Source: Candidatus Acidiferrum sp.
GTDB lineage: Bacteria > Acidobacteriota > Terriglobia > Acidiferrales > UBA7541
Assembly (NCBI GenBank): GCA_041486245.1
Contig: JBGPLB010000003.1
Location: 5,032 to 69,031 of the forward strand
Direction of reading: 5' to 3'
Length of the DNA: 64,000 bases
The notes beneath the pieces are model-generated. The model saw only the letters and a list, made by a program, of their open reading frames with translations, ran no database searches and had not been told where the DNA came from. The translations under genes were made by a program, and so were the position numbers. Below are positions 5,709 through 63,547 of this stretch, one piece after another (the first letter of the stretch is position 1; every line of letters begins with the position of its first letter).

Positions 5709-5946
5709 AACTCTCACAGTTCGTGTGAACGGCACGCCGGTAAATGTCCCTGCTGGATCTACTGTGGCTGTCGCTGTGCTTCTCTCGAGCGGTGCTTCCC
5801 GAACGTCGGTCTCGGGCCAGCCGCGCGCTCCGCTTTGTGGTATGGGTACTTGCTTCGAATGCCGCGTGGAGATTAACGGCCAACCCCACCGTCGGAGTTG
5901 CCAGGTGGTGTGCGAAGAGAATATGGAAATCAACGCCCATGGATAG
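5701..5946 (+). CDS. small (2Fe-2S)-binding subunit (HcnA / opine-oxidase / LhpE-like)
   Basis: 81 aa with a Cys cluster CGMGTCFECRV...RSCQ. Overlaps both neighbouring genes by 8 nt. Confidence 0.8.
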   Translation: MSETLTVRVNGTPVNVPAGSTVAVAVLLSSGASRTSVSGQPRAPLCGMGTCFECRVEINGQPHRRSCQVVCEENMEINAHG

Positions 5947-8163: not shown

Positions 8164-8175
8164 CGGACACAGGCG

Positions 8176-9759: not shown

Positions 9760-9943
9760 CAGTTGTAAATTTGACATTTATTTTATAGTCTCAACGAGGT
9801 GCGCAAAGCTGTCCACAGGACTGGAGTGGCAAATTCGCCTAGTCAGATCCGGGCCGCCGGCAATTTTTGTGAAATCCGGTAACTTTTAGTACTACGTCTT
9901 GGCCCGCTTGCTTGGGTGATACTTGTTTGGTGAACTTGCAACT

Positions 9944-10666
9944 ATGAAAGCAACGAATCCTCGTTCAACTATCGAGTCGATTTCTCCGAGAAAATCGGAC
10001 CCCATCCGAAGGCAATCTCTTTCTGCGGCCGTCGTCGAGCGCCTCCGGGAAAAAATTCTCACCGGCGAACTGCGCGAAGGTGAACAGCTTCGCCAGGATG
10101 CCATTGCCACTGAATTTCAGATTAGCCGCATCCCCGTGCGTGAAGCTCTAAGCCATTTGGCTGCCGAAGGCCTCATCACCATTGTCGCCAATCGCGGCGC
10201 GATTGTTTCTGCTCTGTCACCCGACGAGATCATGCAGATGTTCGAAACGCGCGCCGTTCTCGAATGCTATATGCTGCGTCACGCCATCCCGAACATGAAG
10301 CAAGAGGATTTTCAGCGTGCGGAAGACATCCTCGTTCAGTACGAGCAGTCCCTCAAGAAGGATTCCGAAGTGAAGTCCTGGGGCCAGTGGAACTGGAGTT
10401 TTCACTCCGCCCTCTACGCTCCCGCCAATCGTCCTTTCATGCTCTCTTTCTTGAAGACTTTGAATATCAATTGTGACCGCTACACTCGTCTCCATCTTGT
10501 CTTTACCCGCGACCTCCACCGGGCCGGCGAGGCGCACCGCGAACTTCTCGCTGCCTGCAAGACGAAAGATCCTGAGATCGCTGCCACCGCTCTGTGGAAA
10601 CACATCACGGAAGCTGGCGAATACTTGAAAGAATTCATCACGCGTCATCGCGAACAGCATTCCTAA
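9944..10666 (+). CDS. GntR-family transcriptional regulator (FadR/FCD subfamily)
   Basis: wHTH region LREGEQLRQDAIATEFQISRIPVREALSHLAAEGLI followed by an all-helical FCD-like C-domain. The start is either the ATG at 9944 or the TTG at 9923. Confidence 0.9.
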   Translation: MKATNPRSTIESISPRKSDPIRRQSLSAAVVERLREKILTGELREGEQLRQDAIATEFQISRIPVREALSHLAAEGLITIVANRGAIVSALSPDEIMQMFETRAVLECYMLRHAIPNMKQEDFQRAEDILVQYEQSLKKDSEVKSWGQWNWSFHSALYAPANRPFMLSFLKTLNINCDRYTRLHLVFTRDLHRAGEAHRELLAACKTKDPEIAATALWKHITEAGEYLKEFITRHREQHS

Positions 10667-13100: not shown

Positions 13101-13188
13101 AATAACCTCCTGAACTACACGAGAAAATTGTTCTGCCTCGTTTATTCGACGTCGAGTTTGCACTAAAGCGCAGCGGTACCGGGCACAA

Positions 13189-15987: not shown

Positions 15988-16113
15988 GTCCCAGTCCTCA
16001 TCGTCAACCTGTCGAGTTCCGAGCTAATCGATTCTTGCAGCGGTCTACGTTTGTAAGCGCTTCCGCCGTGTTCGTCCCCCACCATTGCGGCCGCGGGAGA
16101 AACCCATTTCGAT

Positions 16114-16128
16114 TGCATAATATATGCA
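16114..16128. promoter_or_regulatory. AT-rich inverted repeat TGCATA-ATA-TATGCA in the divergent promoter region of the paralog pair
   Basis: 6-bp arms read directly from the sequence. An 8-bp palindrome AATCGATT lies at 16026-16033 in the same 190-bp intergenic region. Confidence 0.3.
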
Positions 16129-16178
16129 CTGTGCTACATTGCAAGCGCTTACTTTATTCTTCCTCCGGAGGTCCTTCC

Positions 16179-19100
16179 TTGCGCTTCTCCTTTACCTTCC
16201 TTTTCCTCGCCGCTTTCTCCCTTCCCCCACTCGCTTCCCCTCAATCCCTCCAAAATTCCGAGTTCCATGTCACCTACTCGTCCTCCGGCGTTACCAACCT
16301 CAAGCGCGTTCAGGACAAATACGACACCGACTACATCGCCCGCGGGCGCACTCTTGGCGACATTCTCATTCGCTACCGCTCCGAGGGCGAAAAAGAGTGG
16401 AGGAAAGCGTCCGCGGCACTTCTGGATCCCAAGAATTCTTCGCCCGAGCAGAACGTCACTTTCTCCATCGGTGAGCTCGTGCCTACTCTCGCTTCCCTGG
16501 CTCGCCCCTCGGATTCTGTTCATTCACCCGCAGTTTCTGCCCTCAACGATCAACTCCTGCCGGAAAATTCTCAAGACGAGAGCATTCCACGCTTCTTCTG
16601 GTTCGGCCGAAATGGAACCGCCGAATGGGTGCAATACGATTTTCCCGAGCCAAAACAAGTCCACTCGGTCCAAGTCTACTGGGCTATTCACGACGAGGAC
16701 GCCAACCCCGGCAGGCTGCCCAAGAGCTGGCGCATCCTTTACCGCGATGGCGAGGACTGGAAGGAAGTAAACTCTCGAACTAGCTATCCTGTCGCAGCTG
16801 ACCGGATCAACACAATCGAGTTCGATCCTGTCACAACTTCTGCTCTCCGCATCGAGGCACAGCTGCAAGACGGCGCCACCGCTGGCATGTTCCTGTGGGG
16901 CCTCAATGGCGAAGGTAGAGAGGTCGCTCCAATCCACGACCTGCATGCCAGCGAGAGTTTCCACCTTCAAGACAACGCGCTGATTTGGACGATCTCGCTG
17001 AAAAACGAGTCCACGCGCGAACTCGAAATTGGCGACCTCGCCCTGCCTATTCAGTTCAATACCCAGTATGTTTGGGACAAGACCGAGACGTACACCAAGC
17101 GTCTCATCCCGCACACTCTGATCGCGGGGAACGGCTCATTTCTCTTTTGGATGCGCACCAACACGGAAGGTCCTTACCTAGTGATGACTCCTGCCCCAGG
17201 CAGCGGCCTCGAGTACTTTGAGCCGCGGGGATTTGGACGCGGCGTCGCTTACTACATCCACTCGGCGGCAGCCGGCGAGGAGTTGCAGGCGAAGGGCGGC
17301 ACATGGCGCTTGCCGCACACCAAAATTCTCCTTCAGCCCAGCGGCCAATCTGGCGATTCCGCGACCTATCAATTTCGTTTCCGTTGGGCCGAAGACTACA
17401 GCGCGGTCAGGAATGTTCTTTACGAGGATGGGGATTTCGACATCAATGTCGTCCCCGGAATGACCATCCCCACCGATTTGACGGCAATGTTTTCCCTTCG
17501 CACACACAATAAGATTCGCGCTGTTGTGCCCGAACATCCAGAGGCTACGCGGATTGAATACCTCGGAGTACGCGGCAAAGACGTGCACGTCTACAAAGTC
17601 CGCTTCTCGCGCTTGGGCGAGAATTTATTGAAAGTGGATTACGGAAACTCGCAGTATCTCTCGCTCGAGTTCTTCGTCACCGAACCTCTCGAAACGCTTT
17701 TCAAGAAGCGCGCTTCGTTCCTCGTCTCCCAAGAACAGGTCAACGATTCATCCAAGTGGTACAAGACGGTCTTCTCCCAATGGGATATGAAACATGAAAT
17801 TCTGCGCAGTCCCGACGATTTGGACGGTTTGCAGTCCTACGCCGTAGCGTCCGATGACCCCGCGCTGGGAAAGGCTCCCTACATCGCAGGCAAAAACATT
17901 TTCTATCCTTCACAGCCCGAGATTGATGCCGTTGAAAGCTATCTCAAAGACTTTGTCTGGGGCGGCCTGCAAGAAACGGACAAGGAGCCCTATCCCTACG
18001 CCATTTATGGAATTCCGAACTGGAAAGTAAATCGCGACAGTTCCAAAGACGATCCCAGTGGGAAAAAGCACATCTGGAGAATCTACGATTATCCGCACGT
18101 CATCCTCCTTTACTACAACATGTACAGGGTCGCGAAGCTTTACCCTTCGATGACCAAATACCTCGATAAAGACGCTTACCTCGAACGCGCTTTTGGCACG
18201 GCGAAAGCTTTTTTCACTGTTCCGCTGGAGATTGTGAAATGGTCGCCCTATGAAACCGGAACCTACAACGAGGTAGTGATTCCGGACCTCATCGACGCCC
18301 TATATGAGAACGGTCACAAGGAGCAGGGGGATTGGCTGAAAGCCGCTTGGGAGAAGAAGGTCAAGCATTTCATCAACGACCATCCGTATCTCTTTGGATC
18401 GGAGTATCCCTTTGATTCCACTGGATTTGAGTCCACTCATGCCTTTGCAAAATACGCGATCGGCCATGTCTTGCATCCTCGAGAAACCGCACGCCCGGGA
18501 GAATCGGCCGACGTATTTAACCGAACGGTTAAATATGAAGACGCCGTTTCATTCCTGGAAGAGCAGATGAAGCTCAATCTCGCCTGCCGCGGCTGGCTGG
18601 AAACCGCTTACTACTATCTCGGCAGTGATTATCGCGGTTCGGGCCCTTCCAACTACACACTGAGTTACATGGCGCAGATGGGCGGCTGGGCTGTCTCGGA
18701 TTACGCGCTCTATTTTGCACGCGATCCGATTCCGTACCTGCGGCTTGGCTACGCTTCGTACTTGAGTTCCTGGGCGCTGCTGAATTCCGGCACCCCGGAG
18801 TCCAACTACGGCTACTGGTATCCGGGCAAGAACAACGATGGCGGCGCGGGCGGAGGGTTCGAGCCAAGACCCTGGGGACGCGCGTGGTTCGGCAATAAGG
18901 AGATGGGACGCGGCTCGTGGTGGTACTCCGGCGAAATCGATCTCGGATACAGCGGCGCGCTGCGTTCCGCCGCAACAATCGTGGTAGATGATCCGATTTT
19001 TGGGCTATTTGCGTATGGCGGAGAGCTTTCCAGGGAGAAAAATTTAATTCAGGTGATCCCCAAGGATGGGTTGCGTGCGCGATTCCATATTATGCGCGGC

Positions 19101-19397
19101 GCGCAACGCTGGCATATTCTCCTGGCCCGCGATGGATTTGCGAAGGACAAGCCGGTTTCGTTCGAGGATGGACTTACGACAATTCGATTTACTTTGGAAA
19201 ACCGCGCAACTGAGAATCACGAGACGATGGTTCGAATTGCGGGGTTGCCCGCGGGAAGCTACAAAGCAACGGTACAGAACCATCCGGCGGAAAGACTGAC
19301 AGTTCACGACGGCGAAGAACAGCAGATTCGAATCCCCGTGGAGGCCTCGGGCGCTACTGTGGTCATCGCGCGAGTCCTTGCCTCGACTCACCGCTAG
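16179..19397 (+). CDS. Large secreted protein of unknown function, paralog B, with an inserted discoidin (F5/8 type C)-like domain
   Basis: In-frame TTG at 16179 lies 7 nt after GGAGG (16167-16171) and gives the signal peptide (M)RFSFTFLFLAAFSLPPLASPQS. The longer ORF from 15813 would overlap the divergent gene. The discoidin-like segment is WVQYDFPEPKQVHSVQVYW...WRILYRDGEDWKEV...ALRIEAQL. Confidence 0.85.
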   Translation: MRFSFTFLFLAAFSLPPLASPQSLQNSEFHVTYSSSGVTNLKRVQDKYDTDYIARGRTLGDILIRYRSEGEKEWRKASAALLDPKNSSPEQNVTFSIGELVPTLASLARPSDSVHSPAVSALNDQLLPENSQDESIPRFFWFGRNGTAEWVQYDFPEPKQVHSVQVYWAIHDEDANPGRLPKSWRILYRDGEDWKEVNSRTSYPVAADRINTIEFDPVTTSALRIEAQLQDGATAGMFLWGLNGEGREVAPIHDLHASESFHLQDNALIWTISLKNESTRELEIGDLALPIQFNTQYVWDKTETYTKRLIPHTLIAGNGSFLFWMRTNTEGPYLVMTPAPGSGLEYFEPRGFGRGVAYYIHSAAAGEELQAKGGTWRLPHTKILLQPSGQSGDSATYQFRFRWAEDYSAVRNVLYEDGDFDINVVPGMTIPTDLTAMFSLRTHNKIRAVVPEHPEATRIEYLGVRGKDVHVYKVRFSRLGENLLKVDYGNSQYLSLEFFVTEPLETLFKKRASFLVSQEQVNDSSKWYKTVFSQWDMKHEILRSPDDLDGLQSYAVASDDPALGKAPYIAGKNIFYPSQPEIDAVESYLKDFVWGGLQETDKEPYPYAIYGIPNWKVNRDSSKDDPSGKKHIWRIYDYPHVILLYYNMYRVAKLYPSMTKYLDKDAYLERAFGTAKAFFTVPLEIVKWSPYETGTYNEVVIPDLIDALYENGHKEQGDWLKAAWEKKVKHFINDHPYLFGSEYPFDSTGFESTHAFAKYAIGHVLHPRETARPGESADVFNRTVKYEDAVSFLEEQMKLNLACRGWLETAYYYLGSDYRGSGPSNYTLSYMAQMGGWAVSDYALYFARDPIPYLRLGYASYLSSWALLNSGTPESNYGYWYPGKNNDGGAGGGFEPRPWGRAWFGNKEMGRGSWWYSGEIDLGYSGALRSAATIVVDDPIFGLFAYGGELSREKNLIQVIPKDGLRARFHIMRGAQRWHILLARDGFAKDKPVSFEDGLTTIRFTLENRATENHETMVRIAGLPAGSYKATVQNHPAERLTVHDGEEQQIRIPVEASGATVVIARVLASTHR

Positions 19398-19628: not shown

Positions 19629-22600
19629 ATGCCGCAGAAAAGAAATTCGCCCGTTCGATGGAGCTGCGTTCTAGGGGTAGTAGCTTTGCTCGCCGTTGTG
19701 GCTCCCGCCGCATGGCCACAAACGAGTTCCCAAGGCACCGTGACCGTGTTGGTTATGGATCCAAGCGCAGGCATCGTCCAGGGTGCCAAGTTGGTGCTTC
19801 AAAACACGGCCACCAACGAAGTGCATGATGCGGAAACGCAGCAGGTGGGAAGCTACACCTTTGTGGCTCTGCCGCTCGGAACGTACAGACTTACCGTTTC
19901 AAAATCCGGCTTTCAGACGGAAGTCCTGGATTCTGTTGTGGTTCAGGGGGGGCGGGCGACCGATGTCAAGGTTACCCTGAAAGTAGGGGCAGCGACCGAG
20001 AAAGTTGTCGTCAGCGAGAGCTCGGTGCCGCTGGTGGAGCTCACTTCGAGCGCCATCTCAACGACCATCGATACGAAACAAATCGAAGAATTGCCATTGC
20101 AGGGCCGCGATATCAGCAGCCTTGCACAGTTGTCGCCGGGATACAGCGGCACGGGAGGATTCGGCACCTGGAACGGTCTGCCAGTGATCGCACAAGGAAA
20201 CACCATTGACGGTGTGGTTTCCTCGACGAGCCGCATGAAATTCGCGGGCAACGTGCAACCTGGCTTGGAAGCGCGCCTCGAGGATATTCAGGAGATGAGC
20301 GTTCAGAGCAGCCAGGCAGACTTGAATCAGGGAATGGGCCTGGCCGCTATGCAGGTGAATTTCGTGACGCGCAGCGGCAGCAACGACTATCACGGAAGAA
20401 TCTTCGAAGATTTTCGCAATACCGCACTGAACGCCAACAGTTGGTTCAACAATGCGGTCGGTCTGCCGAAGACTCCCATCATTCTCAATGAATTTGGGGG
20501 AAGTGCGGGCGGCCACATCATCAAGGACAAGCTCTTCTTCTTCGGATCGTTCGCGATGGCCAAGCAGCCTGGCGGCTACATCGCCGGCTCTCAAGTGTTG
20601 TCTTCATTGGCACAGCAGGGCATTCTGACGGAAGCGAATGGAACACAAGTTAATCTCTTCACGCAGGTTGCCCAGCCGAATGGGCTGCCAAACTGCGTCA
20701 CTACTCCCAGTATTTGCCAGGCGTTTGCGACTCAGCAGGCGCTGATTAACAAAGGGGTGGCCAGCGGAGGTGTGTCACTTTCCGATTCCGGTGACCCGAA
20801 TGTCCAGAACGTGAGCTGGTTGGTACCTTCGCCAACTACCAAATATTATCCAGCTTTCCGCGTGGACTACAACGCCTCGCAAAAGGTTCGCATCGACTTT
20901 TCGTTCGAGGAGACCAAGGTCAACCAGCCGAATGCGTCTTCTCCTTTTTTCCCCGGCTCGGATTTTGCAAGTCAGGCGGCGTCGTTCAAGTCGAACAACT
21001 ATATCGCCTCGTTGGGAGTGAATTGGACGATCAAGCCGACCCTGATCAACCAGTTCCGCGTGGGCTATTATTACAATGCATTTTGGTACGCGTTCGGTGG
21101 AAATCCCGCTTGGGATACTCTGCCCCAGATCAACTGGGCCATTGGAGCGTCGGGCGAGACATTTCAACTTCCTGTAACGACCTACTACCCGATTGTGAAC
21201 GCCTCCGACAACGCGACTTGGATGCGCGGAAGACACACGGTTACGTTTGGATTCAACTTTTTCCGGGAGCAGGATCACTATTGGAACCCGCCTGACGGAA
21301 TTCCAAGCGTTAGTCTGGGGCTGGTGAACGGCGATCCGGCTTTCCAACCCTTTGAAAACTATTTCCCTGGCGATACACAAGACACGACCGATGCCGAAAA
21401 TCTGTATGCAACTCTCATAGGCCGGATTTCGGGTGTCGGCCCCGTAGGTAGCGGTTTTCCCTATGATCAGAAGACGGGCCAGTATGCTACCAAGCCCGGG
21501 TCGGCCTACAACCTGGACGAACTCCAAAAAGGCTGGGGACTTTACGCGCACGATTCTTTCCGCCTCACCCCGCGGTTAACAATTAACTACGGCCTGCGGT
21601 GGGACTTCACCGGGGACAACCACGATCTGACTGCCGCGTATCACGGCGCTTCGCTAGCCGAAATTTTTGGACCCTCGGGTGCTGGCAACGCATTCCAACC
21701 CGGGACTCTGACGGGTGATCTCAATCCTTCTTACGTAGCGAGCAGCCACCAATACAATGGATGGAATGTAACTCCCCAGCCGACGATTGGGCTGGCGTGG
21801 AATCCGACTGGTTCCGAGGGGTTTCTGGGGAAATTGCTCGGCGGAAATAACACGGTCATTCGCGCCGGGTTCGATATCAAACGATTCACCGAACCCTATC
21901 AATATTTCTGGAATAGCGCTTCGAACCACGGCATGGCATTCTTCCAAAGCTTCTCACTCCAGCCCGCCGCTGGTGGGGGGACAGGCACATTCCCGACTGG
22001 CAGTCTTTCTCTTCCCAGCCAGCCGACTGATGCAAACCTAGCTACTGTCCTCGCCCCCTATCCATATTCCGTGGCTCCGCCAGCTTATGCAGCCAGCCTT
22101 CAGCAGTCGCTGTTTACGTGGAATTACTACTTCTCGGGCGCCGGAATGGATCCCAACATCAAGGAGCCCTACGTGCAGCAATGGAACCTTGGTATCCAGC
22201 GACAGCTGGGAGCCAGCAACGTCCTGGAAATCCGTTACCTCGGCCATAGAACCCTTCATCAATGGATCGGGGTCAACACCAACGAAGTGAACATTTTCGA
22301 AAACGGTTTCCTTCAGGAATTCAAGAATGCACAATCAAACCTGAAGATCTGCATGGCCACGCCAAGCTGTGCTTCTGCTCCCAGCTTCGGTAACAAGGGC
22401 ATAGTGGGTCAGGTGGCGTTGCCGATTTTCGACACAGCGTTTAGGACGGAGTCCGGGGGACCGGGAAGTTTTGCCGACTACACCAACGGTTCCTTCATCA
22501 CAGACTTGAACCGGGGAGCTGCCGGGACCTTGGCTCTCCAACTGGCTTATCCGTTTGGGAATGCACCGTACATTTGCAATTTGGTTGGGTCTTCGCTCTC

Positions 22601-23546
22601 GCCGTGCTCCACACAGTACAGTTATACGACTCCAGGGGCCTACCCAGTCAATTTCTTCCAAGCGAATCCGTATGCCGATGGAATCGGCTTCAAGAATTTT
22701 GGCGATACGGCCGCAAACGCTTCCTTCTTGAGCGCGGCTGGCTTCGGCACCTATAACGCACTTCAAGTGGACTTCCGCCAGAAGCAGTGGCACGGCATGC
22801 AGTTCGATGTGAATTACACCTGGAGCCACACGCTCGGAGTACAGCCGGACGGTCAGTGGACCGGAGCCGTAAATATCTACTCGATCCGAGACCTGAATCA
22901 AGCTTATGCACCGACCTTGTTCGATCTGAGGCACGTCATGCATGCCAGTGGAACGTTTGATTTGCCTTTTGGGCATGGCAAGAAATTTCTCAACCGCACG
23001 GGCGTCCTGGACAAGGTGGTGGGCGGGTGGACGCTCGGAACAATCTTCACTTATCAGACGGGATTCCCGTTTCAGTTGACGGGAGCTTACAAGACGTTTA
23101 ACGAGTATGGAGCAGGCGGTCTGGCACTAAACGGGGTCAGCGTATCCCAGTTGCAAGCCAGCCTAGGCGTGAGAAATCCGAACTGTAGCTCGGCTTGCGG
23201 ATTTGTCAACGACATCAATCCAAGCCTTCTGACGTCACTTGTCCCAGGCAGCGCCTGCCAGAGTCGCTTGACCAGCGTTTGTCAGAACACAACGCCGGGA
23301 ACATTTGGCAGTCAAGTGTGGCTCTACGGGCCTCATCTATGGAACGACGACCTGTCGCTCTCGAAGGTGGTTCCGTTCGGAGAACGGTTCCGGTTCATCC
23401 TCCAGGGAGAGTTCTTGAACGCATTTAACCACCCCAATTTTGCGAATCCCAATGCCAACATTTCCTCTTCGAGCTTTGGGCATTCCGGTCCGAGCAACTT
23501 TAACGGTCCGCGCGTAATCGAGCTGCGGGCCAACATTTCGTTCTAA
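19629..23546 (+). CDS. TonB-dependent outer-membrane receptor with an N-terminal carboxypeptidase-regulatory-like domain (TBDR1)
   Basis: ATG at 19629 after GGGAGGGG. Signal peptide, then a CarboxypepD_reg-like beta-sandwich (GTVTVLVMDPSAGIVQGAKLVLQN...GTYRLTVSKSGF), a plug motif (IEELPLQGRDISSLAQLSPGY), a long beta-barrel and a C-terminal aromatic residue (ANISF). Confidence 0.9.
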   Translation: MPQKRNSPVRWSCVLGVVALLAVVAPAAWPQTSSQGTVTVLVMDPSAGIVQGAKLVLQNTATNEVHDAETQQVGSYTFVALPLGTYRLTVSKSGFQTEVLDSVVVQGGRATDVKVTLKVGAATEKVVVSESSVPLVELTSSAISTTIDTKQIEELPLQGRDISSLAQLSPGYSGTGGFGTWNGLPVIAQGNTIDGVVSSTSRMKFAGNVQPGLEARLEDIQEMSVQSSQADLNQGMGLAAMQVNFVTRSGSNDYHGRIFEDFRNTALNANSWFNNAVGLPKTPIILNEFGGSAGGHIIKDKLFFFGSFAMAKQPGGYIAGSQVLSSLAQQGILTEANGTQVNLFTQVAQPNGLPNCVTTPSICQAFATQQALINKGVASGGVSLSDSGDPNVQNVSWLVPSPTTKYYPAFRVDYNASQKVRIDFSFEETKVNQPNASSPFFPGSDFASQAASFKSNNYIASLGVNWTIKPTLINQFRVGYYYNAFWYAFGGNPAWDTLPQINWAIGASGETFQLPVTTYYPIVNASDNATWMRGRHTVTFGFNFFREQDHYWNPPDGIPSVSLGLVNGDPAFQPFENYFPGDTQDTTDAENLYATLIGRISGVGPVGSGFPYDQKTGQYATKPGSAYNLDELQKGWGLYAHDSFRLTPRLTINYGLRWDFTGDNHDLTAAYHGASLAEIFGPSGAGNAFQPGTLTGDLNPSYVASSHQYNGWNVTPQPTIGLAWNPTGSEGFLGKLLGGNNTVIRAGFDIKRFTEPYQYFWNSASNHGMAFFQSFSLQPAAGGGTGTFPTGSLSLPSQPTDANLATVLAPYPYSVAPPAYAASLQQSLFTWNYYFSGAGMDPNIKEPYVQQWNLGIQRQLGASNVLEIRYLGHRTLHQWIGVNTNEVNIFENGFLQEFKNAQSNLKICMATPSCASAPSFGNKGIVGQVALPIFDTAFRTESGGPGSFADYTNGSFITDLNRGAAGTLALQLAYPFGNAPYICNLVGSSLSPCSTQYSYTTPGAYPVNFFQANPYADGIGFKNFGDTAANASFLSAAGFGTYNALQVDFRQKQWHGMQFDVNYTWSHTLGVQPDGQWTGAVNIYSIRDLNQAYAPTLFDLRHVMHASGTFDLPFGHGKKFLNRTGVLDKVVGGWTLGTIFTYQTGFPFQLTGAYKTFNEYGAGGLALNGVSVSQLQASLGVRNPNCSSACGFVNDINPSLLTSLVPGSACQSRLTSVCQNTTPGTFGSQVWLYGPHLWNDDLSLSKVVPFGERFRFILQGEFLNAFNHPNFANPNANISSSSFGHSGPSNFNGPRVIELRANISF

Positions 23547-23576
23547 AGCCAGTCTAGGCGGCCTTATCGGACTGGT

Positions 23577-23649
23577 GGAGGCATTCACCGAGCAGAATTC
23601 TTCTCCCCCACACCCCGGGAGAGTTCGGTGGATGCCTCCTTTTCTGTTT
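23577..23649 (+). terminator. Rho-independent terminator candidate after TBDR1
   Basis: 15-bp stem GGAGGCATTCACCGA / TCGGTGGATGCCTCC (one G-U pair) encloses an inner CTCCC/GGGAG hairpin and is followed by TTTTCTGTTT. Confidence 0.6.
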
Positions 23650-23824
23650 GCACCACCACGATTGCGCGCGCAAGCACTCACCTCGCGGCGACGCAGGTAA
23701 TCGGATAAAAGCCTTCCGGTCCCTTCGTCGCTGCTCTTTGATGGTTCAATCTTTTTTGAAGCTGTGTGAGAATACTCTTCGCGACGCTCAGCGGCCAGTA
23801 ATTCGAACGGTACTAACTCTAGTA

Positions 23825-23853
23825 TTGACAGGTTGTAACAATCATGCTATCCT
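23825..23853 (+). promoter_or_regulatory. sigma70-like promoter candidate upstream of the TPR-CRTAC1 genes
   Basis: TTGACA (23825-23830), 17 nt, then TATCCT (23848-23853). It would give a leader of about 250 nt before the TPR gene. Confidence 0.3.
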
Positions 23854-24104
23854 TGTTTGTGTATTTTGAGCCAAAAACCCGTAACGCCTCCACCCACGCT
23901 CTTGCTGTGCCCGCCGTTGGTCCCGCGATCGCAGCCGCGAGGAACGAGCCCTTTCCCTCTAACCCCTTTATAATCAACATCTCTAGGCTGCCTCATAAGT
24001 GTTGCATACAAAAGACTTACAGATTTGCTAACTCGTTTAGAATCCGCACTTACAAAAAACCGGGGGGAGGGGGCACGTTATCGTTAACTAGGCCCACACC
24101 CTTC

Positions 24105-25142
24105 TTGTCGGGACTCTCGTGCAGCCAAGTCCGCATTCTTCCGAGGCCCCTTTGCCGCATCCGACGGACGCCGTTTGTATGTTCGTCATTCATAGCCAGA
24201 TTCCTTCGCTCTGTTTGTCTGATTCCTGTTGGAATCCTGGTCGCTACGGCAACAGTTGCTGCCCAGACGCGGCCAGTTGCTCCGCCTTCCGCTGCTCCGA
24301 CGGTTGAGCAAGCTATCGACCTCGCTGCCAAAGGCCGCTGTCAGGAAGCTTTGCCGGTTCTAAAGAAGTCCGCCGCGCATCTTCCCGACAAGGATCTGAA
24401 GTATCGTGTGGCGATGGCCACAGTGCGCTGTGCCATGAGCCTTGACCAGGCGGAGACGGCGGTCACAACTCTTCTTCTCCTGAACCGCGAGTTCCCTCAC
24501 GATCCGCAAGTCCTGTATATCACCACGCATTACTACGGACAGCTCGCTTCGCGCGCTGCGCAAGAGCTGGCCGTGACAGCTCCGTCTTCCTATCAAGCGC
24601 ACGAGCTCGAAGCCGAAGCGATGGAGTCACAGGGAAAATGGGATGAGGCGGCGGCGGAATACAAGAAGATCCTGGAGCAAAACCCGAAAGTTCCTGGAAT
24701 TCATTTTCGGCTCGGCCGCGTTGCACTTTCAAAATCAGAGTCTCCCGCGAACACGGACGAGGCAAAAAAAGAATTTGAAGAGGAATTGAAGATTGATCCC
24801 GCCAACGCCGCCGCCGAGTTCTCGCTGGGAGAAATCGCGCGCAGGGCAGGGCAGTGGGAAGAGGCTATCCTGCGATTTACGAACGCGTCCAAACTGGATC
24901 CGGGCTTCGCCGAAGCATTTGTCGCGCTTGGCATGTCACTGAATGCGGCGGAACGTTTCTCCGAGGCAATCAATCCTCTCGAACGGTTTGTAAAGATGCT
25001 GCCTGCCGACCCAGCGGGGCACTACCAACTTTCCATTGCTTACGCGCGCACCGGCCGCAAAGAGGAAGCTACTCGCGAGATGGCCATCCAACGGCAAATT
25101 TTGGAAAAGTCGCCGAACGGGACCCGCCCTAAGGCGAAGTGA
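24105..25142 (+). CDS. Secreted TPR-repeat protein (TPR1); start uncertain
   Basis: TPR-like helical repeats (WDEAAAEYKKILEQNPKVPGIHFRLG, WEEAILRFTNASKLDPGFAEAFVALG, etc.). The hydrophobic signal-like segment FIARFLRSVCLIPVGILVATATVAAQ has no in-frame ATG or GTG before it. The nearest candidate start is the TTG at 24105. The ORF is open back to the ATG at 23844. Confidence 0.7.
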   Translation: MSGLSCSQVRILPRPLCRIRRTPFVCSSFIARFLRSVCLIPVGILVATATVAAQTRPVAPPSAAPTVEQAIDLAAKGRCQEALPVLKKSAAHLPDKDLKYRVAMATVRCAMSLDQAETAVTTLLLLNREFPHDPQVLYITTHYYGQLASRAAQELAVTAPSSYQAHELEAEAMESQGKWDEAAAEYKKILEQNPKVPGIHFRLGRVALSKSESPANTDEAKKEFEEELKIDPANAAAEFSLGEIARRAGQWEEAILRFTNASKLDPGFAEAFVALGMSLNAAERFSEAINPLERFVKMLPADPAGHYQLSIAYARTGRKEEATREMAIQRQILEKSPNGTRPKAK

Positions 25143-25192
25143 GTTCGCAGCTCTGAGAAACCAAAGCCTGCGAGCGGATAAAATGGGATCAG

Positions 25193-26896
25193 ATGGTCTC
25201 TCGACGGCGCATGCTTCAGATTTTAGGTTGGTCCGGCCTGGGAGCCACTCTTGGGCGAGTGAACCCTGCAAGCGCTGCGCTGGCTGTGAACGAAACCGCG
25301 CCCGCGTTTGAAGAAATCCCACCGTCAGCGAGCGGGATTTCCTGGGTTCATGTCAGCGGCCAGTCGCCCGAGATGTACATGCCGGAGACGGTGGGGCCGG
25401 GATGTGCCTTCCTCGACTACGACAATGACGGCTGGATGGACATTTATCTCGTCAATAGCGGGCCGTGCGATTTTTACAAGCCGGCCGCTCCGCTCCGCAA
25501 CGCGCTGTACCGTAACAATCACGACGGCACATTCACAGACGTTACGTTAAAGGCCGGAGTGGCTGGAAACGCTTACGGAATGGGCGCTGCTGCCGGCGAT
25601 TACGACCGCGACGGCCTGCCGGATCTTTACGTGACGCAGTATCCGCGGAGTATCCTCTACCACAACAATGGCGATGGCACGTTTACCGATGTGACCGCAA
25701 AGGCCGGTGTGGCCGCGCCGGGGTGGGCTACGAGCGCAGTCTGGTTCGACTACGACAACGACGGTCTGCTCGATCTCTTCGTTTGCCGGTTCGTGGAATT
25801 CGATAAGTCCAAGAATATTTATTGCGGCTACGGGGCTGCGAACCGGCGCTGGTACTGCAAGCCAAATGTCTATGTTCCCGCTCCCTGCTGGTTGTTTCGC
25901 AATAATAGCGACGGCACGTTTACGGACGTGAGCAAAGAATCCGGGATCGCCAAATCCTTAGCCAAGGCTTGGGGCGTTGTCGCCGCGGATATCAATAACG
26001 ATGGCTGGATGGATCTATTCGTCGGGAATGATACGGTCCCTAATTTTCTGTTCGCCAACCGTGGTAAAGGCCGGTTTGAGGAAATTGGAACGCTCGCGGG
26101 CGTGGGGTACAACCCTTTTGGACTGGCACGATCGGGGATGGGTGTCGATGCCGGCGATTATGACCAGGATGGCTGGCTCGACCTATTCGTTGCCAATGTG
26201 GATCACGAGTCTTTCGCGCTGTATCACAACGGCAAAGACGAATCGTTTAACGATGCGACGCTCGCGAGCGGGATTGGTTCCTCGACGAAACTCTTGAGCG
26301 GATGGGGATTGAAATTTTTTGATTACGACAACGATGGCAATGTGGATTTGCTCCTAGCGAACGGGCATCCTGATCTGATGGTGGAAAACCGGATGCAGGA
26401 CGTCACTTATCGTGAGCCCGTGCTGTTGTTCCGGAATGCAGGCGGAAGTTTCAAAAATGTGAGCGGTCAAAGTGGTCCGGTTTTTTCGAAGAATTTGGCG
26501 GCGCGGGGGCTGGCCCTTGGAGACTTTAACAACGACGGTGGAGTTGATGTGCTGGTGGCGCAAAACGAGGGGCCGCCAGTGTTGCTGCGGAACAACGCTG
26601 GACGCGGGAATCATTGGCTCGGAGTCCGGCTGATTGGCCGGAAAGCGAACATTGACGCCGTTGGCGCAAAACTGAGTTATCAGTCCGGCGATCTTCTGAG
26701 GCATCAGTGGAAAGTGGGAGGAGGCAGCTACCTCTCTTCACATGATCCGCGCGTGGTTCTGGGGCTAGGTCAACGGACCAAGATCGACTGGCTGGAAGTG
26801 AAGTGGCCGAACCCGAGCGGAAAGACAGAGCGATTCACCGATCTTCCCGTCGATCGCTACATTACAATTGAAGAAGGTAAAGGTCGCTGGAGATAG
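25193..26896 (+). CDS. CRTAC1-family protein: seven FG-GAP/VCBS repeats plus an ASPIC/UnbV C-terminal domain (CRTAC1-1)
   Basis: Tat-like signal [19 protein letters not shown]. Seven repeats of the D-x-D/N-x-D-G-x-x-D type ([27 protein letters not shown], and so on). C-terminal [18 protein letters not shown]...[10 protein letters not shown]. Confidence 0.9.
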
Positions 26897-26905
26897 GGAT
26901 TGCAG

Positions 26906-28093
26906 ATGCACAGCTCCCGATGGATGGCGCTCGCGTTGCGAATAAGATTGCCGGCAACGATTACGATCGTTGCCGGAATGTGGCTGCCTGTTTATTCACA
27001 AATTCCAACTCCTGTCTCCACGAATTCTGCGGCGCAGTCTTCGACGAGTGAGGATCCGCAAGCTGAACACGACTTGCAGTTAGGAATCGTTTTGACGCGG
27101 CGGGGATCATTTGCCGAAGCGATTCCGCATTTTCTTGCAGCAAGGGGCCGCGTTCCAGACGAATACGCCTTAGAGTTCAATCTGGCGCTTTGCTACGTCG
27201 GCACCGGCGAATTCGAGAAAGCCATTGCAGTCTTGACGGCGTTGCACGCCGGTCGGCACGAAGGGGTTGGTGTCGAGAACTTGCTTGCGCAAGCGTATGC
27301 GGGAAATGGTCAGGCGGTCGAAGCGTTCGAGGCGCTGCAGCGAGCGGCAGCGTTTACACCGAAGGATGAAAAGCTTTATTTGTTTGTTGCCGATGCTTTC
27401 CTGAGACGTCAAGAAGATGCGCAGAGTCTTCGAGTGATTGAGCTTGGCCTCGAACATCTCCCTGAGTCCGCGCGGCTGCATTATGAGCGAGGTTATTTGC
27501 TTTCGATGCTCGATGATTTTGACGGCGCGAAACCGGATTTTGAACAAGCGATGCGGCTCGCACCGCACTCCGAGATCGGGTATCTTGCGGAAGCACAAGA
27601 AAATCTCCTTGCAGGAAACCTTGCGGAAGCGATTCGCGTTTCGCGGGCCGCCACTGCGGAAGGTCTGCAGGATTACCAGTTGCTGGCAATTCTGGGCGAA
27701 GCGCTGATCCGTGCCGGGGCGAGCCCTGGGCAAGCGGAATTTGTGGAGGCGCGGGCGGCGCTTGAGAAGTCGGTTGCTGTGCGGGCGAATTATGCGAGCG
27801 CTCAAATCGCGCTGGGGCACGTGAACCTGTTGGATGGGCGGATTGATGCAGCTATCGAGCATCTGGAAACTGGGCGACGGCTAACTCCGCAAAACCCAGG
27901 CGCATATTCGCTACTCGCGGCGGCGTACCGGAAGAGCGGGCGGCTAGAGCAATCGAAAGCGATTCTGGCGATCCTTGCGAAGCTGAATCAAGAGCAGGCG
28001 CAAAGAATCCGGACGGCGCCCGGCGAGAGCAAGGCGATTCCCGGAGCGTCAGGAACAAGTCGAGCGGAGAAAAAGCCGCTGACTGAAAGATGA
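26906..28093 (+). CDS. Secreted TPR-repeat protein (TPR2)
   Basis: The start (ATG 26906 or TTG 26900) lies 4-10 nt after the CRTAC1-1 stop. N-terminal hydrophobic segment followed by multiple TPR-like repeats. Confidence 0.8.
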   Translation: MHSSRWMALALRIRLPATITIVAGMWLPVYSQIPTPVSTNSAAQSSTSEDPQAEHDLQLGIVLTRRGSFAEAIPHFLAARGRVPDEYALEFNLALCYVGTGEFEKAIAVLTALHAGRHEGVGVENLLAQAYAGNGQAVEAFEALQRAAAFTPKDEKLYLFVADAFLRRQEDAQSLRVIELGLEHLPESARLHYERGYLLSMLDDFDGAKPDFEQAMRLAPHSEIGYLAEAQENLLAGNLAEAIRVSRAATAEGLQDYQLLAILGEALIRAGASPGQAEFVEARAALEKSVAVRANYASAQIALGHVNLLDGRIDAAIEHLETGRRLTPQNPGAYSLLAAAYRKSGRLEQSKAILAILAKLNQEQAQRIRTAPGESKAIPGASGTSRAEKKPLTER

Positions 28094-28120
28094 AAAACTA
28101 TTTTGATTCCGAAAATCCCC

Positions 28121-29848
28121 TCAAACCGATTTGGAAGGAACGCGAGGAAAGGGCCGGTGGACCAAGCCTTTGCCTTCCTCGACAGATAGAATCTGACCGG
28201 CTTTCAAGTTTATGAGTTTGGTGAACTCACCGCTGGGCCACTTGATTTCGATTTGATCGATGGCGGAGCGCTGCCCCAGCCCGAAATGCAGGCGCGGATC
28301 TTGCGCGGATTGATAGCTCATACCTCCTTTTCTTTCATCGAAGAGAACCAAATCTCCGGCGGTCAGTTTGACGCGGGCGCCCACGGCGTCACGATTCGAA
28401 TGAGTGCCGATGAGGAAGAGCTGCAACCAGTGATTGGAATTGCCGCCGTCATTGCGCAGGAGTTGCGGGGGCTGGCCGTTGTTGTTGACAAGAATGTCCA
28501 GGTCACCGTCATTGTCAAAATCGCCGATGGCGGCGCCGCGGCTGACGCGCGGCAATAGAAAATCGGCTCCGAGCTGATCGCTCACATTCTCAAAGACTCC
28601 AGAACCGTTGTTGCGGAACATGAGTTTGGGTTCTGCGTAGCGCGTTTCAGCGTGATAGAGCTGGATGTTATCGAGGACATGACCATTGGCGATGAAGAGA
28701 TCGCGCCGGCCATCGTTATCGTAATCCAGGAAGCGGGCGCCAAAGCCGCTCATGTGGAAAGTGGCGTAGGAGATTTTCGAGCGATAGGTGGCGTCTTCAA
28801 ACACGCCGTCGCCGAGATTGCGGTACAGGCGCGCCAGCTGTTGATCCAGATGCGTCACGACCAGATCGAGCCGTCCGCTTCCCGTGGTATCAGCGGCGTC
28901 GGTGCCCATGCCGGCTTCGAATTGACCGTCGATGCCGACGGCCACGCCCGCTGAATAGGCTACTTCGCGAAAAGTGCCATCGCGGTTGTTATGAAACAAG
29001 AAATTCGGCATGGAGTCGTTGGCGATAAAAATATCCTGCCAGCCATCACTGTCGTAGTCGAAGGTTACAACTCCGAGTCCGTTCCCTGGTTTCTGACCGA
29101 GGCCGGAGCGGCTGCTGACGTCCGTGAAGGTTCCGTCGCCGTTGTTGTGATACAAGGTGGGTGCCTGGCCGTGATAGACGTCCGGATGGCAGTAGCTTCG
29201 TAGCCCGGGGCCCTTGCTGCCGCAGTAGAAATTGTTTTGTGGTGACCAGTCGACGTAATTGGCGATGACCAAGTCGAGTTTTCCGTCATTGTCGTAATCA
29301 AACCAGGCAGCGCTAGAAGCCCACTTGCCGACGTTTCCGACTCCGGCTTTTGATGTCACATCGGAGAACGTTCCGTCCCCGTTGTTGTGATACAGGATGC
29401 ATCTTCCGTAGCCCAGAACGAAGATGTCCGGGAATCCGTCGTTGTCGTAGTCACCGACCGCGACGCCCATACCGAACAAGCCTTCCGCGCCAACGCCCGC
29501 GTGCTCCGTGACATCCGTAAAGGATCCGTCGCCATTGTTCTTATATAAAGCGCTACGCAAGTGCTGCTTCGGGGTGTAAAGGCTTGTGGCCGCCCCATTC
29601 ACAAGATAGAGATCCAGCAAGCCATCTTGGTCGTAATCGATCCAGCCGCAGCCGGAGCCCATCGTTTCAATCAGATACTTCTCCGCGGAAGCTGCATTGT
29701 CGTGAGTAAAAACAATACCCGAGGCGCGCGCGACATCTGTGAAGCGGACTTGGGGCGTGCGCGAGGCGCCGGAAAGGCCACGAGCACTGCTCACCAGGCC
29801 TGCGCCGAGATACTTGAAAAGTTCACGCCTTGAAAGGGGCAACGTCAT
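28121..29848 (-). CDS. CRTAC1-family FG-GAP/VCBS + ASPIC/UnbV protein (CRTAC1-2)
   Basis: Tat-like signal SRRELFKYLGAG. The same repeat architecture as CRTAC1-1. C-terminal GGMSYQSAQDPRLHFGLG...IEIKWPSG. Confidence 0.9.
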   Translation of the reverse strand: MTLPLSRRELFKYLGAGLVSSARGLSGASRTPQVRFTDVARASGIVFTHDNAASAEKYLIETMGSGCGWIDYDQDGLLDLYLVNGAATSLYTPKQHLRSALYKNNGDGSFTDVTEHAGVGAEGLFGMGVAVGDYDNDGFPDIFVLGYGRCILYHNNGDGTFSDVTSKAGVGNVGKWASSAAWFDYDNDGKLDLVIANYVDWSPQNNFYCGSKGPGLRSYCHPDVYHGQAPTLYHNNGDGTFTDVSSRSGLGQKPGNGLGVVTFDYDSDGWQDIFIANDSMPNFLFHNNRDGTFREVAYSAGVAVGIDGQFEAGMGTDAADTTGSGRLDLVVTHLDQQLARLYRNLGDGVFEDATYRSKISYATFHMSGFGARFLDYDNDGRRDLFIANGHVLDNIQLYHAETRYAEPKLMFRNNGSGVFENVSDQLGADFLLPRVSRGAAIGDFDNDGDLDILVNNNGQPPQLLRNDGGNSNHWLQLFLIGTHSNRDAVGARVKLTAGDLVLFDERKGGMSYQSAQDPRLHFGLGQRSAIDQIEIKWPSGEFTKLINLKAGQILSVEEGKGLVHRPFPRVPSKSV

Positions 29849-29926: not shown

Positions 29927-31006
29927 CTAAAGGTTCGTGGATCGCCCGGCGAGAGCTTTTTCTTTGCCGCCCGGAACGCCCTGGGTTTTCCGGGCAAGTC
30001 CCGTGGATTCCCGAACGACTAGCTCCGGATCAATAAGAATTTCGCGGCCGGTCATCTGCTCTCTTTTCGAATCGGGGAGCAGATTTTCAAATATAGTCCG
30101 GCCAATCTGCTCGCGTGGAATATGCACAGTCGTAAGGGCTGGTGAGCAAAACTCGGCAAGCTTAATGTTGTCAAAGCCCGTTACCGAAATATCATTCGGC
30201 ACGCGGATTCCCTGATCGCGAAGCTCTCTCAGAACACCCACGGCCATGAAGTCATTTACGCAGAGGATTGCCGTAGGGTGAATGTTTGAGGCCAGCAACT
30301 CGCGAGCAGCCTGCCGGCCTCCTTCCAAGCCATCGGCGCCGGCTACGATTTGGCCTTCGCACCCGGGAGTGAAACCTGCGATGGTTTCTAGGAAGGTTTT
30401 TCTTCGTTCGCTGATCGGTCCAAGAGTGGAATGGTGTCCAACAAAAGCCATGCGAGTGTGACCAAGAGAATGAAGATACTCCGCGATTTTCTTCATTCCC
30501 TTCTTGTAGTCCACCCTGACATTGGTGATGTTTTTCCGGGGCGTTCCGACGTCATAGAAGACGATAGGAATTCTACTATCGGTGAGAACCTGCATCAGTT
30601 CCGCATCCATTTCGGAGACGATGGCAGCGAGACCGGCGACCCTCCAGCCGATCATCAAGCGCACGCTGGAGACAAGCTGCTCGGAACGGTAATCGGTGTT
30701 TGCAACAACAACTTCATAGCCGCGCGCGTGGGCCGCAGACTCGAGAGCGCGATAAATGTCGAAGAAAAAAGGGTTTTCCATATTGGAAACAAGAATTCCC
30801 AAGGTTCGGCTCTTGCCGCGGGCAAGAGAACGTGCGTGCAAATTGGGGTGATAATTAAGCTCTCCCGCAGCCTTGAGGACCCTCGCACGCGTCGAAGACT
30901 TGACCACCTTGAGGTCATTGAGGACACGCGACACAGTCGCAGTCGAAACACCCGCCTTCTTGGCTACGGCGTCCAGGTTCATGGATTCGAATCGTTTCAA
31001 TGACAT
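29927..31006 (-). CDS. LacI-family transcriptional regulator (LacI-1)
   Basis: HTH LDAVAKKAGVSTATVSRVLN followed by a periplasmic-binding-protein-like sugar-binding core. The start is ATG 31006 or ATG 30982. Co-directional with CRTAC1-2, 78 bp upstream of it. Confidence 0.9.
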   Translation of the reverse strand: MSLKRFESMNLDAVAKKAGVSTATVSRVLNDLKVVKSSTRARVLKAAGELNYHPNLHARSLARGKSRTLGILVSNMENPFFFDIYRALESAAHARGYEVVVANTDYRSEQLVSSVRLMIGWRVAGLAAIVSEMDAELMQVLTDSRIPIVFYDVGTPRKNITNVRVDYKKGMKKIAEYLHSLGHTRMAFVGHHSTLGPISERRKTFLETIAGFTPGCEGQIVAGADGLEGGRQAARELLASNIHPTAILCVNDFMAVGVLRELRDQGIRVPNDISVTGFDNIKLAEFCSPALTTVHIPREQIGRTIFENLLPDSKREQMTGREILIDPELVVRESTGLARKTQGVPGGKEKALAGRSTNL

Positions 31007-63526: not shown

Positions 63527-63547
63527 CCACCCCGGAAGCAGCACCCC

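Follow-up and report, generated by a model that had tools for sequence, protein, structure and literature searches.

A recurrent gene cassette in Acidobacteriota joining TonB-dependent transporters with TPR proteins and CRTAC1-like propellers

Nutrient uptake loci in which a TonB-dependent transporter is encoded together with accessory proteins are a kind of system that is already known, as in the SusC/SusD systems of polysaccharide utilization loci (PULs) in the Bacteroidota. The Xanthomonas-type carbohydrate utilization (CUT) loci combine a TonB transporter with glycoside hydrolases and a LacI-type regulator and lack SusD; to our knowledge they also lack a conserved pair of TPR and CRTAC1-like accessory proteins. 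The Acidobacteriota, one of the most abundant groups of bacteria in soil, encode many TonB transporters of the CarboxypepD_reg type. Here we describe a 64-kb stretch of DNA from Candidatus Acidiferrum sp. (the window) in which genes for TonB-dependent receptors (TBDRs), exported tetratricopeptide repeat (TPR) proteins and CRTAC1-like beta-propellers form a cassette, and comparison with related loci supports the view that these three components would constitute a conserved functional unit well beyond this genome. The accessory set, consisting of a TPR protein, a CRTAC1-like propeller and often a cytochrome, is new in that it has no description in the literature searched and no curated family; searches for work linking ASPIC/UnbV/CRTAC1-family or FG-GAP/VCBS proteins to TonB receptors, SusC/D or Acidobacteria found nothing relevant, and no NCBIfam model scores above cut-off for any of the cassette proteins.

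Pfam scans of the large open reading frames (ORFs) recovered each of the genes and domains named in an earlier note on this DNA at the positions assigned to them, and the gene set on which that note was built (three CRTAC1 paralogues, at least four secreted TPR proteins and two TBDRs) is borne out. A Joint Genome Institute (JGI) contig, L082, encodes a protein identical to CRTAC1-3 and covers the region past the right end of the window. The genes of the two modules are as follows.

19629-23546, plus strand: TBDR1, 1305 aa, assigned by Pfam.
23825-23853, plus strand: promoter-like match TTGACA-17-TATCCT with a TG, resembling the sigma-70 consensus, between TBDR1 and TPR1.
24192-25142 (ORF open from 23844), plus strand: TPR1, an exported soluble protein of about 316 aa, matching Pfam TPR families.
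25193-26896, plus strand: CRTAC1-1, assigned by Pfam and a structure model.
26906 (ATG) or 26900 (TTG) to 28093, plus strand: TPR2, an exported TPR protein, assigned by Pfam.
28121-29848, minus strand: CRTAC1-2, convergent with TPR2 and 27 nt from it.
29927-31006, minus strand: LacI-1, with Pfam LacI and Peripla_BP domains.
55418-57778, plus strand: CarboxypepD_reg-TPR protein, assigned by Pfam, with its start taken from a 786-aa gene call on L082.
57824-59710, minus strand: CRTAC1-3, with a Sec-type leader, divergent from TBDR2.
59996-63526, plus strand: TBDR2, 1176 aa, with an ATG after GGAGG, assigned by Pfam.
63662-64000, plus strand, cut by the window end: TPR4, the 5' part of the gene for an exported 407-aa TPR protein.

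Every CRTAC1 gene of the window (3/3) touches a TPR gene, and the gene for the CarboxypepD_reg-TPR protein is convergent with CRTAC1-3 across a 45-nt gap. In module 1 the start of TPR2 does follow closely on the CRTAC1-1 stop, at a distance of 3 nt (TTG) or 9 nt (ATG), with a GGAG ahead of the ATG and inside the 3' end of CRTAC1-1, and LacI-1 lies exactly 78 bp upstream of CRTAC1-2 in the same direction, the latter as had been read previously. The spacer between TBDR1 and TPR1 is 633 nt long and contains the TTGACA-17-TATCCT match; promoter and terminator scans of the region gave site counts no higher than in shuffled sequences, and the site at 23825-23853 is a consensus match only. Module 2 (59996-64000) has the composition proposed for it, with TBDR2, TPR4 running off the window end and CRTAC1-3 divergent. 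Beyond the window end (L082:1-4767) the full TPR4 gene, which has strong TPR Pfam matches, is followed by genes for an S9 peptidase with a PD40 propeller and an S15/S9 peptidase, and there is no CRTAC1 gene in that segment. Because two S9/S15 peptidase genes come after TPR4, module 2 is best described as a TBDR-TPR pair with a divergent CRTAC1, and the slot behind TBDR-TPR holds a peptidase gene in module 2 and a CRTAC1 gene in module 1. The G+C content of the window is 53-61%, and its closest relatives are Candidatus Acidiferrales/Acidoferrum and other Terriglobales genomes.

Conservation of the cassette was analyzed in 80 loci selected by CRTAC1 similarity from one-genome-per-species collections, of which 79 were counted; they span the Terriglobia, Blastocatellia/Pyrinomonadaceae, Vicinamibacteria and Bryobacterales, together with one Poribacteria genome. 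Neighbouring ORFs were labelled by phmmer with the window proteins, and the percentages are lower bounds because TPR detection used three query proteins. Transporter and TPR genes are split in many of the loci from metagenome-assembled genomes (L003, L007, L011, L024, L050 and others), mostly in 'MFD' assemblies; these look like assembly frameshift errors rather than pseudogenes, and the transporter and TPR fragments were merged for counting.

The adjacency of the cassette genes exceeds chance. Of the kilobase immediately upstream of the anchor CRTAC1 gene, 40-41% is covered by co-directional TPR genes, compared with 0-2% at -6 to -10 kb, and co-directional TBDR genes cover 23-28% at -2.5 to -4.5 kb compared with 6-9% far away. 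A TPR gene is present within 500 nt after the TBDR gene in 28/45 cases, and the complete colinear order TBDR>TPR>CRTAC1> is seen in 17 of 62 loci, with two further loci having looser versions. The whole block is preserved in L001, a 90%-identical orthologue on a 238-kb contig, where the order DUF5695-DUF5695-TBDR-TPR-CRTAC1-TPR-CRTAC1(<)-LacI(<) is kept, including the position of LacI upstream of CRTAC1-2. The block TPR>CRTAC1>TPR>CRTAC1< is kept in L001, L002, L004, L005, L024 and L062, with the transporter on the other side in the last five of these. The recurrence that the earlier note had described from a single genome is thus conserved, across these species-level loci, in several classes of Acidobacteriota.

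Domain fusions provide a second line of evidence. Among ten long family members analyzed with Pfam, eight are TPR-CRTAC1 fusions, five of them with CRTAC1 followed by TPR and three with TPR followed by CRTAC1, and one other (P0350) has a multihaem cytochrome c followed by CRTAC1. Fusion of two domains in both orders is a classical sign of two proteins that work in one complex, and because the TPR-CRTAC1 fusions recur, and do so in both orders, a partnership between the TPR and CRTAC1-like proteins is indicated. L007 also contains a TPR+CRTAC1 fusion, and the most elaborate example is a single 1283-aa ORF in L055 (3461-7309) that contains a Tat (twin-arginine translocation) leader, an unassigned 280-aa N-terminal region, a CRTAC1-like propeller with UnbV_ASPIC, an AhpC/TSA-redoxin domain and a TPR array. 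The upstream gene of L076 is a cytochrome-TPR fusion by Pfam, and L074 has an ORF with four CXXCH motifs and a phmmer TPR label.

The cytochromes are a recurrent fourth partner that the earlier note had missed, as it had the cytochrome and redoxin fusions. An ORF with at least three CXXCH motifs is present in 19 of the 79 loci, about a quarter, and in 16 of them it encodes a 350-470-aa protein with seven motifs. The gene lies within the cassette or immediately next to it, and its place varies: it may separate the transporter gene from a TPR gene, one TPR gene from another, or TPR from CRTAC1, or it may directly follow CRTAC1, in the same or the opposite orientation. Nearly all (18/19) of the ORFs with at least five CXXCH motifs belong to a single homologous family that has a signal peptide and a common haem spacing, the core members of which (n=13) are 36-57% identical across classes; the loci are L012, L013, L029, L031, L034, L035, L037-L039, L042, L045, L047-L050, L053 and L071 (for example, L042:8720-9889). 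Comparison with the PDB reveals only weak matches, to cytochrome c554 and NrfA-type proteins. In a random set of 101 otherwise unlabelled flanking ORFs multihaem cytochromes are the commonest class (6), followed by AP_endonuc_2 (4). The CRTAC1 proteins of the cytochrome-bearing loci are 55-67% identical to CRTAC1-1, and many have Tat leaders. Because of this partner and of the cytochrome and redoxin fusions, the cassette may include an electron-transfer step rather than pure binding, and we note that a CRTAC1-family gene has been reported inside clusters encoding hydrazine-synthase homologues (PMC12758564).

The three CRTAC1 paralogues share 43-48% aa identity (CRTAC1-2 and CRTAC1-3 are 48% and 43% identical to CRTAC1-1, respectively). 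Their description as seven-repeat FG-GAP/VCBS proteins with an ASPIC/UnbV domain holds, as seven DxDxDG loops can be read in each and Pfam agrees, with E values of 2e-61, 2e-55 and 5e-48 for PF13517 and 6e-16, 2e-20 and 7e-21 for PF07593; the first of each series is CRTAC1-1, with six FG-GAP_3 matches followed by UnbV_ASPIC. An AlphaFold2 model of CRTAC1-1 (predicted local distance difference test score, pLDDT, 86.5; predicted template modelling score, pTM, 0.87) has a seven-bladed propeller and a seven-stranded C-terminal sandwich. Murine CRTAC1 (PDB 9etn) is matched by CRTAC1-1 both in sequence (E 3e-17) and, as the best Foldseek match of the model, in structure (9etn_A, E 1e-30, template modelling (TM) score 0.71-0.73, 577 columns). 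The runners-up are the N-acetylglucosamine (GlcNAc) lectins AAL2, PVL and PAL, ITFG2 of KICSTOR and aldos-2-ulose dehydratase, and further matches include a Tc-toxin propeller, teichuronic-acid-bound UmbA4 and integrin alpha. Calcium blades of this type are common to integrins, PVL, the PL11 rhamnogalacturonan lyase and CRTAC1 (PMC3123361). No EGF-family Pfam match was found at E <= 0.001, and the CRTAC1-like proteins end at the UnbV_ASPIC sandwich.

Outside the calcium loops, residues E65, C222, P224, D280, N289, M316, R438, N467 and W538 are invariant in 111 CRTAC1-like ORFs, whereas His53, His392 and His474 are only 72-80% conserved, and the conserved propeller residues match no known cofactor motif. 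M316, R438 and N467 are replaced in murine CRTAC1 in a pairwise alignment with the PDB sequence, and for this reason the bacterial proteins may have a site of their own. The family is very large, with 13,562 relatives at E <= 1e-30 in a HMMER search of 1.84 billion cluster representatives (50% identity clusters). The statement that no role is established for bacterial CRTAC1/ASPIC-UnbV proteins stands, as none was found in the literature searched.

TBDR1 starts at an ATG preceded by GGAGGGG and has a signal peptide, an N-terminal CarboxypepD_reg domain, a TonB-box-like segment (EKVVVSE), a plug-like region and a large barrel. The CarboxypepD_reg domain matches PF13620 (TBDR1, E about 1e-14 to 2e-15; TBDR2, E 1.5e-19) and more weakly PF13715 (E 4e-4 to 1e-4), and in an alignment of 22 sequences it is followed directly by a TonB-box-like consensus ETVxVT, which is identified by pattern recognition only. 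By these comparisons the barrels are strongly predicted and the plugs weakly: PF25183 (OMP_b-brl_4) matches at full length in both (E 3e-125 in TBDR1 and 1.5e-205 in TBDR2), and PF07715 (plug) matches TBDR2 weakly (E 0.005, 17.7 bits against a cut-off of 23.9) and TBDR1 not at all. A profile of 22 TBDR homologues has a weak match (E 3e-4) to PqqU and YncD that is confined to the plug, and a weak match to the Cir barrel (E 7e-3); TBDR2 as a single sequence has no match in the PDB.

The AlphaFold2 model of TPR1 (pLDDT 82) has 15 helices, and its Foldseek matches are designed consensus TPRs, the TPR domain of OGT, subunits of the anaphase-promoting complex (APC/C) and MamA. SusD is absent from the top 50 of these, neither TPR1 nor TPR2 has a SusD/RagB Pfam match, and a SusD-like identity for the TPR protein is rejected on the Pfam result and on the generic TPR superhelices found with Foldseek. 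The BepA and Slam models give weak, sub-threshold TPR matches. The TPR1 orthologues are mostly 313 aa long, and the position of their start codon corresponds to an ATA at 24192 in the window and an ATG in L001; a 93%-identical relative has also been called in a long 429-aa form. Because the orthologous position is an ATA, TPR1 either has a non-canonical start or begins upstream, at TTG 24105 or ATG 23844, and the cause could be a non-canonical start, use of the TTG at 24105, or an N-terminally extended product.

The two twin-arginine leaders described earlier are present, in CRTAC1-1 (SRRRMLQ...PASA) and CRTAC1-2 (SRRELFK...SGAS), and CRTAC1-3 differs in having the Sec-type leader. Of 100 related CRTAC1-like ORFs, 55 conform to a strict Tat pattern, most notably the orthologues of CRTAC1-1 and CRTAC1-2 in the Terriglobia, and the remainder have Sec-looking leaders, and 53 of 68 TPR neighbours have a hydrophobic Sec-type leader. 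Lipobox-like matches are uncommon (6/100 CRTAC1-like ORFs and 7/68 TPR neighbours), and there are none in the TPR and CRTAC1 proteins of the window; lipoprotein anchoring of the TPR and CRTAC1 partners was rejected on these counts. A surface-anchored lid is unlikely and a periplasmic arrangement simpler because both proteins lack lipoprotein signals, and the simplest inference from these leaders is that both are soluble and periplasmic, with onward secretion past the periplasm being possible.

The cassettes are embedded in a catabolic context. The window encodes a GH127/GH146-like enzyme, two DUF5695 proteins, GH31, a GDSL esterase, GH3, an AP_endonuc_2 TIM barrel, GH67, GH51 and two LacI regulators. 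Upstream of module 1 (10701-19397) there is a GH127-family protein, after which come the two DUF5695 proteins, of which one carries an F5/8 type C domain; the best PDB relative of the GH127-family protein (E 2e-140) is 5opj, which we take to be the GH146 beta-L-arabinofuranosidase BT0349, and DUF5695 has no sequence relative in the PDB. This trio flanks the cassette in L001, L005, L006, L054, L061 and L062. Farther left (615-10666) a DPP-IV/S9 peptidase gene adjoins a set matching bacterial 4-hydroxyproline catabolism, with a proline-racemase-family epimerase, DAO, Pyr_redox, a DHDPS-like protein, an aldehyde dehydrogenase and a GntR/FCD regulator, and the beta-L-arabinofuranosidase-like gene adjoins this set. 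These glycoside hydrolase, hydroxyproline and peptidase neighbours point to arabinose-rich plant glycans and hydroxyproline-rich glycoproteins as substrates, and judged from its neighbours the system in the window most likely handles plant cell-wall glycan fragments or hydroxyproline-rich glycoproteins under LacI-family control. Also in the window, a 660-aa ORF at 42129-44111 (minus strand) has no Pfam or NCBIfam match, and its homologue in L001 (18964-21000) is located a few kb from a LacI gene.

A palindrome of the LacI type is a candidate for the regulatory link. The two sites next to the modules are listed below, with no strand assigned.

59946-59959: LacI-type palindrome CGTTTACGTTAACG, almost perfect, with a TTGACA at 59915 on one side and the TBDR2 start on the other.
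24076-24089: LacI-type palindrome-like site CGTTATCGTTAACT upstream of TPR1, with two mismatches to CGTTWACGTWAACG.

Sites of the CGTTWACGTWAACG family are at 24076, 31229, 46646, 50551, 53487 and 59946. Matches to the palindrome with up to three mismatches number 18, where 3.5 are expected. With up to two mismatches, four of the five sites in the window are intergenic, whereas intergenic DNA makes up 9.7% of it (P 4e-4 with the seed site and about 0.003 without it). The intergenic sites lie between CRTAC1-3 and TBDR2, between GH3 and AP_endonuc_2, between GH67 and the WXXGXW gene, and upstream of TPR1, and looser sites (three mismatches) are in the LacI-2/GH51 and LacI-1/FucIso regions. Similar sites are present between LacI and TBDR genes in L035 and L069 and beside TBDR genes in L019 and L055; in the closest orthologous loci the stretch ahead of the cassette has none within two mismatches. 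The palindrome therefore links the cassettes to the GH3, GH51 and GH67 genes in silico, as a candidate for co-regulation and not as proof of it. Operator-like matches of the form CGATTACGATAACG inside the CRTAC1 genes were discarded as a coding artefact of the DYDND calcium loops. The WXXGXW-repeat protein itself (50665-52071) is encoded in a stretch of high AT skew (0.159 in the 50-52 kb bin), and its gene is kept beside LacI-2 in L082.

The account that we favour, although tentatively, is that the cassette is a TonB-dependent uptake module of an Acidobacteriota type, in which a CRTAC1-like propeller, scaffolded by TPR proteins, takes over in the periplasm what the transporter has imported. 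The SusC-like transporter, with its periplasmic CarboxypepD_reg domain, TonB-box-like segment, plug-like region and very large barrel, would carry the substrate across the outer membrane, and in the periplasm the substrate would meet one or two soluble TPR scaffolds and a CRTAC1-like protein that had been exported either folded by Tat or unfolded by Sec. The TPR protein would act as a physical adaptor that holds the propeller and, in many lineages, the seven-haem cytochrome c, and may dock them to the periplasmic N-terminal domain of the transporter. The propeller would be the substrate-handling part that binds or chemically transforms the import, and where the cytochrome is present this step probably passes electrons.

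Several observations weigh against this account. The loci were chosen by CRTAC1 similarity, which is a selection, and their neighbours were labelled only through the window proteins. The lectin-like fold matches are generic for FG-GAP propellers, and neither a universal His/Cys metal triad nor a known catalytic motif was found across the CRTAC1-like ORFs. The window has no ORF with three or more CXXCH motifs and hence no such cytochrome, from which it follows that a redox step is not required for the core. Among the 51 loci with complete flanks, only 14 have glycoside hydrolases of the window type and only seven have LacI, and the substrate class is for this reason not fixed; the site at 24076 upstream of TPR1 is a weak operator match.

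The earlier note had proposed a logic analogous to SusC/SusD. Taken as surface capture, this would have the TPR protein close the transporter from the outside, in the manner of SusD on SusC, with the propeller as a surface glycan-binding feeder. The SusC-like N-terminal CarboxypepD_reg domain, the helical-repeat gene behind the transporter (28/45), the resemblance of the propeller to fungal GlcNAc lectins and the glycoside hydrolase and LacI context all fit this, and Tat-exported proteins can travel further by type II secretion. The general analogy is retained in part, as there is a conserved TBDR-TPR-CRTAC1 unit with glycoside hydrolase neighbours and a shared LacI-type palindrome, but the TPR protein lacks the SusD fold, with no SusD/RagB match and only generic superhelices matching its model, lipoprotein signals are essentially absent from both partners, and the same cassette or polypeptide also includes a seven-haem cytochrome of periplasmic type and a redoxin. 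We consider the surface arrangement improbable. Another possibility is that the propeller is itself an enzyme of a new family, perhaps a cytochrome-coupled oxidoreductase or a calcium-dependent lyase or hydrolase, with imported oligosaccharides, glycopeptides or other organic compounds as its substrates and the TPR protein as its scaffold, which is a sharper version of the periplasmic account. Tat leaders in most Terriglobia orthologues, the single-family cytochrome in 19/79 loci and the fusions in P0350 and L055 agree with this, as do the peptidase in the slot after TBDR-TPR in module 2 and the invariance in bacteria of E65, D280, N289, M316, R438 and N467, the last three of which are replaced in murine CRTAC1. 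The calcium-blade homology with the PL11 rhamnogalacturonan lyase (PMC3123361) and the structural match to aldos-2-ulose dehydratase point the same way. Six-bladed pyrroloquinoline quinone (PQQ) propellers with adjacent cytochromes have been proposed to oxidise imported sugars (bioRxiv 10.64898/2026.07.10.737718), which offers an analogous logic and not a relationship. However, no cofactor or catalytic motif is recognisable, the histidines are not universal, three quarters of the loci including the window have no cytochrome, and Tat export does not prove a cofactor, and we regard this version as unlikely, although it ranks next after the general periplasmic account.

There are two further alternatives. 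The system could serve metal acquisition, with the transporter taking up chelated Fe(III), calcium or a lanthanide, the cytochrome reducing or releasing it and the propeller acting as a periplasmic carrier of the metal or metallophore; the seven calcium-blade loops per protein, the multihaem cytochrome and the identity of the best PDB transporter matches of the TBDR profile (PqqU and YncD, weakly and in the plug only) are in its favour, and a preprint proposes that periplasmic lanthanide carriers dock to TonB transporters. Calcium blades are structural in integrins, lectins and PL11 (PMC3123361), however, the likeness to PqqU is a generic plug similarity, the neighbours in the window are LacI-type sugar repressors, glycoside hydrolases and peptidases, and no Fur, siderophore or PQQ-biosynthesis match was found among the window ORFs scanned with Pfam, such that we rate this as more improbable than a surface complex. 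Least probable of all, and in our judgement very unlikely, is that the TPR and propeller proteins are biogenesis factors that fold or insert the large barrel. The pairing does recall the TPR protein BamD and the beta-propeller BamB, linkage to a very large barrel gene is tight, and there are the sub-threshold TPR matches to BepA and Slam, but the proteins are not lipoproteins, their numbers relative to the transporter vary (here there are two TPR genes and two CRTAC1 genes to one transporter gene), cytochrome and redoxin partners would make no sense in assembly, and the candidate co-regulation is with catabolic enzymes.

The periplasmic receiving account has a bolder extension, in which bacterial CRTAC1-like propellers would make up a family of periplasmic enzymes, very large and so far unrecognised, that act on TonB imports, are held by TPR proteins and often exchange electrons with a seven-haem cytochrome c. 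We view this as doubtful, yet its consequences are of some interest: imported oligosaccharides, for example, might be oxidised and the electrons delivered to the respiratory chain, vertebrate CRTAC1 would have its origin in an enzyme family or a common ancestor with one, and TBDR-TPR would be an Acidobacteriota counterpart of SusC-SusD built from different parts. Apart from this, the cassette offers a concrete and repeated set of partners for the Acidobacteriota transporters, namely TPR protein, propeller and, in about a quarter of loci, cytochrome, and the function of bacterial CRTAC1 proteins becomes testable because the operon is defined and both a regulator site and a substrate class can be proposed. 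Human CRTAC1 is widely measured as a biomarker (PMC10477339), and the result could also help in understanding its biology.

How the cassette components relate to described proteins can be summarised from the propeller outwards. Vertebrate CRTAC1 (9etn) shares the core of propeller and C-terminal beta-sandwich and the DxDxDG loops of the calcium blades, whereas in bacteria the leader is of the Tat or Sec type, the gene shares an operon with TPR and transporter genes, and there is no Pfam match corresponding to the C-terminal EGF-like domain of the vertebrate protein. UnbV (SgcE4-type) proteins of enediyne clusters have the same UnbV_ASPIC domain, and JGI names many of the homologues 'enediyne biosynthesis protein E4', but a polyketide-synthase match is absent among the window ORFs scanned with Pfam, and the name is an annotation transfer and not evidence of enediyne chemistry. 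The fungal GlcNAc lectins PVL, PAL and AAL2 (2bwr, 5mb4, 4tqm) are the next-best structures (E ~1e-10) with homologous calcium blades (PMC3123361), but are 16-17% identical, lack the C-terminal sandwich and have TM scores of 0.36-0.5. Quinohaemoprotein alcohol dehydrogenases and the six-bladed PQQ enzymes with adjacent cytochromes (bioRxiv 10.64898/2026.07.10.737718) are calcium-binding periplasmic propellers adjoining or fused to a c-type cytochrome, sometimes in carbohydrate-uptake loci, a logic paralleled in the 19 cytochrome-bearing loci and in the P0350 fusion; the propellers here are of the FG-GAP type with seven blades, the cytochrome has seven haems, and no PQQ-binding residues were identified in them, such that the comparison is an analogy only. 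The BAM (beta-barrel assembly machinery) components BamB and BamD are lipoproteins, whereas an anchor signal is rare in this family and absent from the window proteins. The closest parallel in overall organisation is with SusC/SusD of the Bacteroidota PULs, which similarly have a CarboxypepD_reg-type domain before the TonB box (in the cassette, a TonB-box-like segment), a helical-repeat gene next to the transporter gene, and glycoside hydrolases with a sugar-type repressor. The partner in the cassette is instead a canonical seven-repeat TPR superhelix without a lipoprotein signal, and to this the Acidobacteriota loci add an obligatory-looking CRTAC1-like propeller and often a seven-haem cytochrome.

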